Assembly: GCA_964016885.1 (NCBI GenBank)
Contig: CAXHJY010001696.1
Coordinates: forward strand, 1 to 64,000
From: Eledone cirrhosa
Taxonomy: Eukaryota
Direction: 5' to 3'
Length of the DNA stretch: 64,000 bases
Positions 1,885-52,818 of the stretch are shown here, one piece after another. Both the position numbers and the translations under genes were made by a program. The notes under the pieces are model-generated. The model was given only the letters and a program-made list of their open reading frames with translations, was not told the origin of the DNA and did not search any database. Within the stretch, counting starts at the first letter, position 1, and each line of letters begins with the position of its first letter.

Positions 1885-1955
1885 TATTTTATCTGATGAA
1901 AACGCAGATATCATCCCATCATGATATTTGTTTTTGAAATGCGCATAATAAAATA
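1885..1955 (+). ncRNA. Type I hammerhead ribozyme motif (PLE-type)
   Basis: TATTTTAT-CTGATGA-[AAACGCAGATATCAT/CCCATC/ATGATATTTGTTTTT]-GAA-ATGCGCAT-A-ATAAAATA. 8-bp stem I, 15-bp stem II with one mismatch, perfectly palindromic stem III, AUA site. Confidence 0.85.
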
Positions 1956-2193
1956 CTTGGAACTCTTTTAACCATCTTTTGATCTTATATTCCCGCCGAA
2001 GTTTACTTTGCCTTTCATCGATAAAATAAAATACCAGTAATGCACTGGGTATTTTGCTGGCCTTGTGCCTAAAGTAGAAACAATTATATATATATATATA
2101 TATATATATATATATATATATATATATATACACTTGAGCCCAGGCAAATTTCCTTTCAGTTATCCATCGTCTTCACTATTATCGATTACTCAC

Positions 2194-2339
2194 TAAAAGT
2201 TTGATGCATTTTTAAGAAACAATTAACCACGATCCAGTTAAAATGGTGCTTTGACTGGTTCTTCGATATAGGAAAATTTTCAATTATGTAATCTATATTT
2301 TTCCTTTTTTTCCCCTCCACATATAGAATTTTTTCTTCC
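2194..2339 (-). other. Candidate exon (146 nt) of an unidentified minus-strand gene, possibly containing the start codon
   Basis: Acceptor TTTGTTTTCAG immediately 5' and donor GTGAGTA immediately 3'. One frame is open throughout: EEKILYVEGKKRKNIDYIIENFPISKNQSKHHFNWIVVNCFLKMHQTF. No recognisable homology. Confidence 0.35.
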
Positions 2340-2370
2340 CTGAAAACAAACTATTTTAATTGCTGATAAC

Positions 2371-2480
2371 TTGTGTTGTGTTGTGTAGTGTTGTGTTGTG
2401 TTGTGTTGTGTAGTGTTGTGTTGTGTTGTGTTGTGTTGTGTTGTGTAGTGCTGTGTTGTGCTGTGTAGTGTTGTGTTGTG
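2371..2480. repeat. (GTGTT)n pentanucleotide microsatellite
   Basis: Direct inspection. Confidence 0.9.
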
Positions 2481-4799
2481 TGACGTGTATATATTATTAT
2501 TTTTTTCACTTTACTTTACGTTTTTTGACTTTGCCTTTCATCCTTACGGGGTCGATAAAATAAAGTACCAGTAATGCACTGGGTGATTGCTGGCCTTGTG
2601 CCTAAAGTAGAAACAATTATTTAGCTATACGACGAGGGCGGTGGATTGGCAGTATCGGTAGAGGGTCGGACGCCATGCTTTCCAGCATAGTTACGTCCCT
2701 TTACGATCTGAGTTCAAATCCCGCCGAGGTTGACTTTGCCTTTCATCCCGACGGGGGTCGATAAAATAAAGTACCAGTAATACACTGGGTAATTGCTGGC
2801 CTTGTGCCAAAAGTAGAAACATTAGGATAATTATTATTTAGTTTCTGGGAGGTCGGTGGATTGGCAGTGTCGGTAGAGGGTCGGACGCCATGCTTTGCAG
2901 CATAGAGTAACAGCTCTTACGGTCTGAGTTCAAATCCCGCCGAGGTTAACTTTGTCTTTTATCCTTACGGGATGCGCTAAAATAAAGTCCCAGTAATGCA
3001 CTGGGTTAATTGCTGGCTTTGTGCCTAAAGTAGAAACAATTATTTAGCTATACGACTAAAGTGTCGTCTGCATAGCACCAATAGAAATAAATGAATGCAT
3101 GCTTGAAATATCGTCTGCTGCTTAGTATATGAAAACATGAAGGAAAGAAAACAAGCGAGTGAGAGGTACGTCGATAAAATAAAGTACCAGTTATACACTG
3201 GAATAATTGCTGGCCTTGTGCCAAAAGTAGAAACAATTATATATATAGAGAGAGAGAGTGAGAGAGAAGAATTGAAGTCAGTGTTACAGCATTAACTCTG
3301 GAATACAACCCACATGAGACGGACCTCGTAACAACGTGAAGTACTTATATATATATATATATATATATATATATATATATATATATATATATACACTATA
3401 AGGATAAGAAAAAAGGATTCAGTGTTGTATCATAACATATTTAAAACATATGTTTCACTATCGATCAGCTCGAGGCAAGACCTATTACAGATCGAACCTG
3501 GGTCTGTAATCGAACGCAAATATTCTTGCAACCATACAACTTTATATATATATATATATATATATATATATACATGCAGTAACCTGACCTCTATATCAAA
3601 ATATATCAATCGATCTATGTTAAAGAAGCGAAAGCCTAGTTCTGCTCTAATTTTCACGAATGTAAAACTACGTAGAGTTTAAAGAAAGTTAATAGAACAG
3701 ACAATGATTTTACTGATATCAGATCTTATAAAATACCTGCTGGTACCGTATTGTTGTCTTGTTCATTGTTTCACGACACAAATAACTTCATATCTATATA
3801 TAAGGCCCGCGTCTAACGCGGTTTTAAATACTGCTATTTTGAACATACCCTCGGGTCTCGAATATTCGCCCCTCTCCTCCGATTATTAATTTTCCAGTCT
3901 TTTTTTCAAACCCACCACCACTCTTATGTGTGTGAGTGTGTGTATATATATATATATATATATATATATATATATATATATATATATATATATACTCACA
4001 CTCACACTCACACATACGCCAATGTGAGCTGGCTTACGTATGTAAAACTACGAACACGTACTTAACTAGGATCTGAAAGTAACTTTACATGATCTGAGAA
4101 AACAACAACGGTGAAATTTTAATATGTGTAAGCGATAAGAGATATGTGCTTGTTATTATGAACAAGTAGAAATATATTAGGCAAACAACAGCCAACAATA
4201 TACTGCATGATAACAGCAAATTAGACAAAATTAACTCAGATAAAACTGCACAAGTCAACATTTAAACTTAATAAACTAATTACACCTGTTAATGTTTAAA
4301 TAAGATTTATTCCTTCCCGATAGAGACTGAAAAATAAACTGTAACCCTTCATAGACCTATTCCAGTGTAAAACCTCACAGAGAGAATAACCCCAACACAT
4401 CCCACATCTGATATATAATCTCCTTGCTCAACATGACTCATAGAAAAACGAAACATGAAGAAATAATCATAAAAAAGAGTTCACCAACGAGGTTTTGTTG
4501 GTCGGATAAATTAGTTAGAAAATCTACAAGAAACCACTTTAACAATTTTTTTATCACAATAGACAATTACAGCATGCTGGAAAGATACTGCCACAAACAA
4601 CTTCAAGCTTTCTAAAGACGTGTGATAAATAATTATGTATTGCATATGATTGAACAATATATTGTAGTCGGCAGATGTAGACTGTTAAAATAGACACAGA
4701 ACATATGTTAAAGCCAGCAAATTCTTTCTCTCTTTTCTCGCTGAAGTCTATATTTTTCTTGAAGCAATATTTGCAGATATTTTACATATATATAATATA

Positions 4800-50885: not shown

Positions 50886-51463
50886 CTTTTTTCACGTTTT
50901 TATTGTATGTAAATTGTCCCCTTCTTTTATGCCCCTGTGGCTAATAAAGAAACATATCTATATATCTCTCTATCTCTCTACCTATCTATCTACCTATCTC
51001 TCTATCTATCTATCTATCTATCTATCTATCTATCTATTTCTCTCTATATATCTACCTATCTATCTCTCTATCTATCTATCTATTTATCTCTATCTCTCTC
51101 TATCTATCTATCTATCTCTCTCTCTCTATTTCTCTCTATCTATCTATCTATCTATCTTCAAAGGTGGGTGAATGTGGCGAGAATGACCCGAGTGATTGGG
51201 GCCTTCTCTGTATATAAACCTGTAGGTTGAGGAAGAGAGCAAAAGGAAGAAAGGGGCACTTGCACAACACGCTCCTGAAGTTGAGGGTTGTTCTATCGAC
51301 GGGGTATTAAACAACCCATTTGTGGCCCCTCTCCCCTATTGGGGATTTCGATTGTTATATTTTCATGTAAAAACTTTTTTTTTACACGACTGTATGTAAA
51401 ATACCCGTCATATGTCCTTGTGTTGTCCCCTTTTCTTGTGCGCCCTTGTGGCAAATAAAGAAA
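50886..51463 (+). mobile_element. Two Tx1/L1-type LINE 3' ends in (CTAT)n (50886-50952; 51157-51463)
   Basis: [14 protein letters not shown].. is homologous to 33046-33420. Ends CCC[T/C]TGTGGC[A/T]AATAAAGAAA then (TCTA)n. Confidence 0.7.
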
Positions 51464-52187
51464 TCTATCTATCTACCTACTTGTCTACCCATCTACCTGG
51501 CTAATTACCTTTCCACGTTTCATCTACACACCCATCTATTCATTCATCTATCCCCCCCCCTCTCTCTCTCTCTCTGTATATATATATATATATATATGCA
51601 TATATATATATATATATATATATGTGTGTGTGTGTGTGTGTGTGTGTCAAAAATGTATACACCATTCTAATAAATAATGCGTGTACAGATAATCAAAGTG
51701 TGTATATATTTTGGGAGCACACCCTGTATATATATATATATATATATATATATATATATATATATATATATATATATATATATATATATATAACACATAA
51801 ACAGCTCCCACCGGGAATGATATATATATATATATATATATTAGAGAGAGAGAGAGAATGTGTGTGTGAGAGAGAGAGAGAGAGAGAGAGAGGAAGAGAA
51901 TGTGTGTGTGTAAGAGAGAGGGGGGAGACCAGATGTTAGTAGTAAAGTAAGACCATTAGTAAACTTAGTACCCTAAACTTACAAAAAGTAAAAAAGCGTG
52001 CATACTATAAATACTATAAGGGCTTTCTGAGTTACTGTAAAGATTTAACCGCATTTACTATAGAAGGGGTGAAAGCTTGACAGGAGGTTTGGAAATCCTT
52101 AAAATATATATATATATATATATATATATATATATATATATATATATATATATTTATAAATTTATTTATAAAACTGTTTATATATTG

Positions 52188-52253
52188 TATTTTGTCTGAA
52201 GAGGGCATACCATATTTTTAATATGATATCCCTGAAATATATATAATGAAATA
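52188..52253 (+). ncRNA. Type I hammerhead ribozyme motif
   Basis: TATTTTGT-CTGAAGA-GGGCATACCATATT/TTT/AATATGATATCCCT-GAA-ATATATAT-A-ATGAAATA. Confidence 0.8.
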
Positions 52254-52422
52254 AATATGGTTTTATAAATGTAGTTTCCATTTGTTTAATATCGTAAAAT
52301 ACTCCAAAATCTGTTGAGTGCTTTTATATCAGTTATAAAAATATTTACTCGTTGTAACCCAACAATTTTAAATAAAACTTTTGCATATATATATATATAT
52401 ATATATATATATATATATATAT

Positions 52423-52818
52423 ATATTAAAATATAAGTATTAATAAAATAGATGTTCTTTTGATCAATTACATTTTATTATAAATATTTCGGATGTACAA
52501 CAGTACGTCCTCATCAGACAAAATATAATGATACATGACATACCCTGAGATGTTAAATGGTTAAGATTTCTTGATTAAATCTTAACCATTTAACATGTCA
52601 GGGTATGTCATGTATCATTATATTTTGTCTGATGAGAACGTACTGTTGTACATCCGAAATATGTATAATAAAATGTAATTGATCAAAAGAACATCTATTT
52701 TATTAATACTTATATTTTAATATTAATAACTCCAGAAAATTATTTGCCGTTGAGTGCTTCCAATCTACTGTAAAACTAATTCTTTGACATAATCATTGAA
52801 TATTGTTTAACAATTTTA
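52423..52818 (+). mobile_element. Fold-back element, family D (~147-bp arms plus ~95-bp tail), with two HHRs (52471-52525 -, 52621-52675 +)
   Basis: TATTTTGT-CTGATGA-G[G/A]ACGTAC/TGTT/GTACATCC-GAA-ATAT[G/T]TAT-A-ATAAAATG in both arms. (TA)n flanks. Confidence 0.88.

Follow-up and report, generated by a model that had tools for sequence, protein, structure and literature searches.

An abundant, clade-specific variant of the Penelope-like element hammerhead with an open fourth pair in helix II, seen in the genome of Eledone cirrhosa

Ten hammerhead motifs in a 64-kb window

The window analysed here is a stretch of 64,000 nucleotides (nt) from Eledone cirrhosa (contig CAXHJY010001696.1, positions 1 to 64,000, forward strand). 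Its subject is a group of ten hammerhead ribozyme motifs, carried by fragments of Penelope-like elements (PLEs), in which the fourth pair of helix II (pair 4) is open. An earlier note, made from the sequence alone, had named ten loci with an unpaired C at this position, numbering each motif by one end of helix I. Both strands of the window were scanned for CUGANGA...GAAA; all ten named motifs were recovered, and the open C with the partner claimed for it was confirmed in each. The motifs, together with one carrier fragment, are as follows.

1885..1955, plus strand: type I hammerhead, C.U (1903/1932); core 1893-1899, helix II 1900-1935, helix III 1939-1946, H17 1947 (AUA), AATAAA from 1947
5199..5364, plus strand: 3' fragment of a pseudo-long terminal repeat (pseudo-LTR) of PLE family A, flanked by two (TA)n tracts (from sequence)
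5264..5319, plus strand: type I hammerhead of family A, C.C (5279/5299); core 5269-5275, helix II 5276-5302, helix III 5306-5313, H17 5314, AATAAA at 5321
5657..5718, minus strand: type I hammerhead, C.C (5702/5678) within a 2x2 loop; core start 5712, AATAAA 12 nt after H17
11148..11213, minus strand: type I hammerhead, C.C (11195/11171); core start 11205, AATAAA across the cleavage site
17019..17073, minus strand: type I hammerhead, C.C (17058/17039); core CUGAAGA start 17068
30784..30839, plus strand: second family A hammerhead, C.C (30799/30819) (motif scan)
35906..35983, plus strand: type I hammerhead, C.C (35922/35961), 9-nt helix III, AUC site (motif scan)
52188..52253, plus strand: type I hammerhead, C.C (52206/52230); core CUGAAGA start 52196
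52471..52525, minus strand: type I hammerhead, C.A (52507/52494), inverted partner of 52621..52675 (motif scan)
52621..52675, plus strand: type I hammerhead, C.A (52639/52652), of an amplified short-helix family (motif scan)

All ten loci present the core elements CUGANGA, GAAA and UH in type I order, with a helix I of 4-8 pairs and a long helix II. The fourth position of the helix II 5' strand is C in 10/10, and its partner is C (7 loci), A (2) or U (1). The further features that had been claimed, a stem III of 8-9 nt bounded by A and U, an AUA or AUC site and a nearby AATAAA, are present throughout: helix III is A...U-bounded and 8 nt long in nine loci and 9 nt long in one (35968-35976), the cleavage site is AUA in nine and AUC in one, and AATAAA starts 0-12 nt from H17 in every case. 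The description of the mismatch as invariant holds for the 5' C and not for the whole pair, as the partner varies and the loop is 2x2 in one family group. Nor are these ten independent cases, since 5264 and 30784 belong to one family and 52471 and 52621 form an inverted pair.

Relatives of the family A fragment at 5199..5364, among the matches listed, share a common 3' end and have variable 5' ends; in three loci (L011, L020 and L026) an open reading frame (ORF) with a GIY-YIG domain ends ~1.1 kb upstream on the same strand. The 5264..5319 copy carries an A at 5315, a position at which G predominates among the reads. At 5279/5299 no variant of at least 5% was found in contigs of four sequencing runs, which are possibly from the same species and so not independent. 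The motif at 35906..35983 has no close relative among the loci collected.

Rfam gave no hammerhead match at the gathering score across the window, and at E<=10 the 61 matches in 1800-6000 included no hammerhead family. This failure reflects a limit of the models; a match to Rfam is not a defining feature of a hammerhead.

Abundance and pair-4 states in the genome

The source genome measures 3.0 Gb. Each pattern search of it listed the first 100 matches, and statements at the level of families rest on these; a rare family with a closed pair 4 may lie beyond them. With the core and helix III fixed and every base of helix II left free, a pattern matches 54,235 times and its reversed control 46 times, so the window motifs are not chance occurrences. 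Pair 4 in these matches is C.C in 46,807, C.A in 2,722 (among those listed, mostly the short-helix family of 52621..52675) and C-G in 276, of which the 100 listed are spread over all families. A second type of helix III, to which 1885..1955 belongs, adds 21,145 matches, mostly C.U among the 100 listed. The family of 17019..17073 has 7,368 matches; of the 100 listed, 96 are C.C by a count made by eye. Three patterns together yield ~83,000 exact matches (~80,000 copies), a figure in which a few loci may be doubled and decayed copies are missed. A pattern for 9-nt helix III has 112 matches against 47 in its control, and it misses the locus at 35912 because helix II there is too long. The hammerheads with an open pair 4 are abundant in the one genome in which they were seen, and represent a form of the known PLE hammerhead that is specific to one clade.

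Amplified changes of the pair-4 partner were to U and to A, the latter apparently in two families. A second small family, on G000:C1, with A.A at pair 1, has both C.C and C.A at pair 4, and likely made the C-to-A change independently.

Several candidate subfamilies were set aside. A wider pattern for families without the 5' C has 5,968 matches (control 165), and the 100 listed appear to be single-copy mutants, inner false starts and chance matches. A C-G subfamily appeared in 5 of 33 clusters of a first set (T.C also in 5), which held loci chosen for those states; after the 27 state-selected loci were removed whole, it was found in 0/32 clusters. A G-C copy in L285 does not represent a subfamily either (0/100 matches listed).

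Outside this genome, 118 metagenome stretches gave 8 weak folds among the matches listed, none convincing. Viral sequences held 6 motif matches in which helix II is unpaired, and no relative of the PLE ORF was found in viral contigs.

Conservation and covariation at pair 4

To place pair 4 beside its neighbours we used 274 motif hits, from which the 27 state-selected loci and duplicates were removed, leaving 151 copies in 32 clusters. Pairing in helix II played no part in selecting the 151 copies; 20 of the 32 clusters are single-copy, and one two-copy cluster is likely the same genomic place twice. Pair 4 is paired in none of the clusters (C.C 24, C.U 5, C.A 1, A.C 1, U.C 1), whereas pairs 1-3 are paired in 26, 29 and 31 of them and pairs 5-7 in 26, 28 and 28. 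The Watson-Crick pair 4 that had been named beforehand as the sign against a subclass therefore occurs in no cluster, and a mismatch kept amid covarying pairs, as the earlier note had proposed, defines a real subclass. When 24 more copies, from loci found with C-containing patterns, are removed, pair 4 is paired in 1/127 copies and its neighbours in 113-123/127. The 2x2 loop, with A.C at pair 5, occurs in 6/32 clusters, all in one family group, and the first pair of helix II is G-C in only 9/32. An alternative reading of helix II, in a shifted register that leaves one more nucleotide after A9, was dropped; the symmetric register was kept because positions 1-3 and 5-7 pair in it.

A structural alignment (A2) was built from 19 hand-picked representatives, giving 18 distinct rows that are related by descent. 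The C of pair 4 is the sole invariant column of helix II, while double changes among the 18 rows number 6, 10, 5 and 8 at pairs 2, 3, 5 and 6. Core columns are invariant except N7, and the loops are unalignable. Across the three helices 85% of cells are paired, and covariation is 0.63 versus 0.32 for shuffled and <=0.27 for slid alignments. On a tree made without helix II, the two pair-4 bases require 2 and 3 Fitch changes, the neighbouring positions 4-9, and positions outside helix II a median of 7.

The carrier is a Penelope-like retrotransposon

The window copies are short 3' fragments between (TA)n tracts, with TA tracts at their 3' ends. In longer copies an ORF combining reverse transcriptase (RT) and GIY-YIG endonuclease (EN) lies about 1-2 kb upstream of the hammerhead on the same strand. 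Direct pairs of hammerheads, separated by 3.7-3.9 kb, flank the ORF in L223-L225, and inverted pairs occur in L219-L222; the cut site is about 40-50 nt from the element's 3' end. The frames of L222 and L224 are open over 800-808 amino acids (aa), with YRDD and a C-terminal EN; the Pfam GIY-YIG model scores below its cut-off on L011 (E 0.005) and has no hit on L222. All five ORFs scanned have DKT instead of DKG, a CxCX5C linker and CxxC before the E, and CxH follows the N in L222 and L224. The RWK motif is exact in L273 and L274, with RWT/RWI variants in two ORFs of mismatch families. By eye, no cysteine pair lies within the GIY-YIG core, which is thus without CCHH.

As given in PMC8557442, the diagnostics of Hydra-clade PLEs are DKT, RWK, CxCX5C, CxxC..E, N..CxH, absence of CCHH, and (TA)n insertion. 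Since the ORF motifs match these, we assign the carriers, on sequence evidence, to one subclade of Hydra-clade PLEs with hammerheads in pseudo-LTRs; Hydra reference proteins from that paper's supplement were compared by eye. The units found here exceed the length of 'generally <3 kb' that PMC8557442 states for the clade. A protein search with the ORF found 18 relatives at 29-38% identity. In G000, a Hydra-like protein query returned 89,108 first-look candidates, with many intact frames of 700-790 aa among 63 scored. Elements of this clade therefore form a large part of the genome and have been active recently; a single cephalopod Hydra family is listed where the clade was named (PMC8557442).

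A Neptune or Naiad element had been a first guess from the TA targets, and is ruled out by protein motifs: the CX2-5CxxC linker, CCHH and DKG of Neptune/Nematis are absent, and the EN is C-terminal here, not N-terminal as in Naiad. We also considered and rejected a non-LTR retrozyme, with head-to-tail repeats of 170-400 nt and a canonical hammerhead; the copies listed are dispersed or inverted and linked to PLE ORFs, although no genome-wide tandem scan was made.

The mismatch families form one deep clade

An EN tree built on 17 representatives, drawn from 69 stitched sequences, together with 9 outside proteins grouped nine mismatch-linked rows at a support of 92/97. A tree of RT and EN likewise grouped 11 mismatch-linked rows (Shimodaira-Hasegawa-like approximate likelihood ratio test, SH-aLRT, 99); it comes from a quick search with 23 rows, 6 of them under half filled, and samples about eight ORF-linked families. 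ENs upstream of mismatch hammerheads in L304, L306, L310, L329 and L336 fall outside the clade and were treated as nested insertions, and the L321 ORF also appears unlinked to its hammerhead. The 2x2-loop group and the locus at 35912, which have no linked ORF, were placed in the subclade by motif likeness only.

As all ORF-linked families form one clade, the mismatch likely arose once and was then kept through a deep radiation; the simplest history would be that a C-G pair lost its G once, at the root of the subclade. The loci could have been one recent family in which the mismatch was merely inherited. Common descent is borne out by the clade; recency is not, as the families lie far apart, with 39-74% aa identity among the mismatch-linked ENs and a median nucleotide identity of 62% among clusters in the ribozyme region.

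Sister Hydra families of this genome, among them those in L273 and L274, have a long helix II with pair 4 paired (A-U) and a 9-nt helix III. An inverted hammerhead pair in the window (36788, minus strand, and 36865, plus strand) resembles these, its helix III being 9 nt and its helix II long and irregular. Another Hydra family, L339 (G000:C1:91473000-91478500), has a U3-A8 core variant and a long helix III (6 bp), such that its hammerhead could fold as a monomer; it has a frame of ~785 aa, with four copies 3.5 kb apart on C1. In the window, the palindromic repeat at 5388-5580 and 10924-11052 is the 3' end of this family; the copies apparently comprise the 3' half only, duplicated and inverted.

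Predicted folding and the AAUAAA hexamer

Folding of 30 cluster medoids indicates a median gain of 4.7 kcal/mol for a C-G at pair 4, with which the median probability of pairs 2-3 would rise from 0.13 to 0.98. Helix III has a probability of <=0.01 in the monomer and is self-complementary, which points to pairing between two copies. In all three copies folded as dimers, the dimer exceeds two monomers in stability. A role for the antisense strand was also considered; the sense hairpin is the stabler one in 16/30 medoids, which favours neither strand. Extended folds gave no common alternative partner for either base of pair 4.

Within 30 nt of H17, the hexamer A[AU]UAAA is present in 27/32 clusters, compared with 13% in shuffles and 0/32 upstream. 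Its offset from H17 is 0, 5, 6, 7, 9, 12, 13, 14 or 21 nt, depending on the family; at offset 0 (8/32 clusters) the cleavage site falls within it, and it takes part in the pairing of helix I. Because the hexamer is kept but mobile, a fixed tertiary contact is disfavoured and a poly(A) signal favoured, and the AAUAAA appears to act as the latter and not as a fixed tertiary partner.

Comparison with known hammerheads

Hydra-clade PLE hammerheads (Craig et al. 2021, PMC8557442) resemble those described here in being type I motifs near the 3' end of elements with (TA)n targeting and the same protein motifs. They mostly have no extra nucleotide after A9, and U.U or G-U is common as the first pair, as it is here. 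Their helix II is mostly short, and helix III is 9-10 nt with C-G, unlike the alternating 8-nt palindrome of the present families. By eye, the 5' base of pair 4 in that set is C in 15/25, always as C-G; as drawn, pair 4 is paired in 24/25 and is never C.C, C.U or C.A.

Metazoan PLE hammerheads (Cervera and de la Pena 2014, PMC4209133) likewise lie in pseudo-LTRs, mostly as dispersed single motifs with an AU-rich 3' flank, and have a long helix II, a short helix I and a palindromic helix III thought to be dimeric. The dimer-only helix III predicted here agrees with that model. Short palindromic versions of helix III are reported from Aedes and Drosophila willistoni, and a helix II bulge from D. 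virilis. The consensus in PMC4209133 includes one additional nucleotide following A9, as well as G10.1-C11.1; the mismatch families lack both. By eye, the 56 motifs of its Fig. S3 include no C.C at pair 4, with one sea-urchin C.A and one fluke U.U. Assignment to the min-HHR (minimal hammerhead ribozyme) of these authors was rejected, given the symmetric register, a G-C first pair in only 9/32 clusters and the 8-nt helix III, where the min-HHR has none or one of 1 bp. Small dimeric PLE hammerheads were also reported by Lunse, Weinberg and Breaker 2017, according to the review PMC6765202.

The Anolis Poseidon element PAc (PMC11167929) also has a PLE pseudo-LTR hammerhead and offers a model for protein-dependent cleavage. 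It belongs to a different PLE clade, its hammerhead overlaps the ORF start, and no such mismatch is described in the excerpts covered. A literature search, with Lunse et al. 2017, the Terminon paper and Repbase outside it, found no description of the pair-4 mismatch, consistent with the earlier note, which knew of no description of the feature.

Other hammerheads and repeats in the window

The window contains a second hammerhead class, often in overlapping inverted pairs, whose helix II has U.U plus 3 bp (pair 4 being C-G) and whose helix III is long; the site is GUA. The remaining features lie apart from it.

4897 (plus strand), 12755 (minus), 29132 (minus), 29146 (plus), 39931 (minus), 40107 (plus), 58412 (minus), 58430 (plus): hammerheads of the second class
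19485, plus strand: hammerhead with C.C as the first helix II pair and 10 nt in helix III
27920 and 54876, plus strand: hammerheads of the minimal type, in which an additional A follows A9 and helix II is 4 bp long
2640-3040, 5915-6310, 9040-9210 and 9880-9990: copies of an abundant short repeat which, by eye, resembles a tRNA-derived short interspersed element (SINE)

Discussion

Pair 4 is probably held open by selection. The consequence that we favour, tentatively and at somewhat less than an even chance, is that selection keeps a weak hinge there, which would hold the ribozyme mostly off until copies pair or a protein binds. The open pair would cost about 5 kcal/mol and loosen the three pairs adjacent to the core, and helix III would form between two element copies, making the ribozyme dependent on the dimer. 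The hammerheads are predicted to self-cleave after H17, which would leave the RNA body without its 3' tail and the likely poly(A) signal there, so that a fully active ribozyme would cost templates; the hinge may damp such cutting until dimerisation or binding of the element's protein. A precedent is the hammerhead of the Anolis element, the only PLE studied in vitro, which cleaves only with the element's protein, the uncut RNA being the main template (PMC11167929). The predicted dimer-only helix III, the energy that a C-G would gain, the cut near the 3' end and the existence of a protein-dependent PLE ribozyme together favour a weak, damping hinge.

A number of observations weigh against this proposal. 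The optimal dimer is the full hammerhead in only 1/3 folds, and pairs 2-3 still form with a probability of 0.87-0.95 in 3/7 large clusters. The energy model places C.C, C.U, C.A, U.C, U.U, A.C and A.A within 0.3 kcal/mol of one another; weakness alone, then, leaves the constant 5' C unexplained. Single, possibly decayed copies account for many of the 30 medoids. Intact ORFs are numerous in sister Hydra families whose helix II is fully paired, and the hinge is therefore not needed for transposition generally. With respect to selection itself, pairs 3 and 7 also change little on their 5' side (4 changes each), which makes the Fitch contrast modest, and a single origin limits the phylogenetic power; for these two reasons our confidence in selection goes no higher.

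The constant 5' C would be accounted for if it were a recognition site for the RT-EN or for a host protein that chaperones folding or positions the RNA for reverse transcription, a reading that we regard as doubtful; an RT recognition site had been the other suggestion of the earlier note. The 5' base is C in 30/32 clusters, both exceptions being single copies, and energetically equal mismatches go unused; the protein requirement of the Anolis ribozyme also fits. A protein would nevertheless find little to read, given that the flanking pairs are free to vary and the partner is C, U or A. The same 5' C is an ordinary C-G in 15/25 other Hydra hammerheads, so its conservation may predate the mismatch, and reverse transcription of the Anolis element starts in a different stem-loop (PMC11167929). 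That the open C is a docking point where the RT-EN switches on the dimeric ribozyme, with a cut falling within or shortly ahead of the poly(A) signal, and so decides between polyadenylated template and cut RNA across ~80,000 copies, is an improbable extension.

Alternatively, the mismatch could be an inherited accident, an ancestral C-G having lost its G once and then drifted under weak selection. The single clade is what this predicts, the published Hydra motifs make an ancestral C-G plausible, only about eight ORF-linked families are sampled, and the roughly three amplified partner changes, none of them to G, are not significant alone. We think it unlikely, because over the same branches the neighbouring pairs were replaced through double changes and yet stayed paired, the loops became unalignable and the proteins fell to 39-74% identity. 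A neutral unpaired base would be expected to change often, and one C-to-G change would mend a defect of 5-6 kcal/mol.

The least probable reading, and in our view a very unlikely one, is a tertiary contact, the main idea of the earlier note; here the open C would touch helix I or the 3' AAUAAA strand and speed cleavage as the canonical loop-loop contact does. Canonical hammerheads place loop 2 against helix I, near the pair-4 position, and the enrichment of the hexamer near H17 would fit such a contact; against it, helix I varies in sequence at every pair, the hexamer wanders over 0-21 nt and is itself paired within helix I in 8 clusters, and no shared alternative partner is predicted, non-canonical contacts lying outside the folding model. 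The register is also one pair shorter than the canonical loop 2, helix II being 4 bp in canonical hammerheads (PMC4209133).

The finding remains a small structural variation, in one genome, on a known pairing of ribozyme and retroelement. It nevertheless concerns a class of ~80,000 motifs that Rfam missed in this window, and descriptors requiring an unbroken helix II would likely miss the class as well. The role of the hammerhead in Penelope-like elements is an open question (PMC8557442). For that question the clade provides a natural structure-function series, with diverged families, a constant core, covarying helices, one kept defect, and sisters without the defect, and a single-base swap would tell whether these ribozymes are tuned down or protein-gated.

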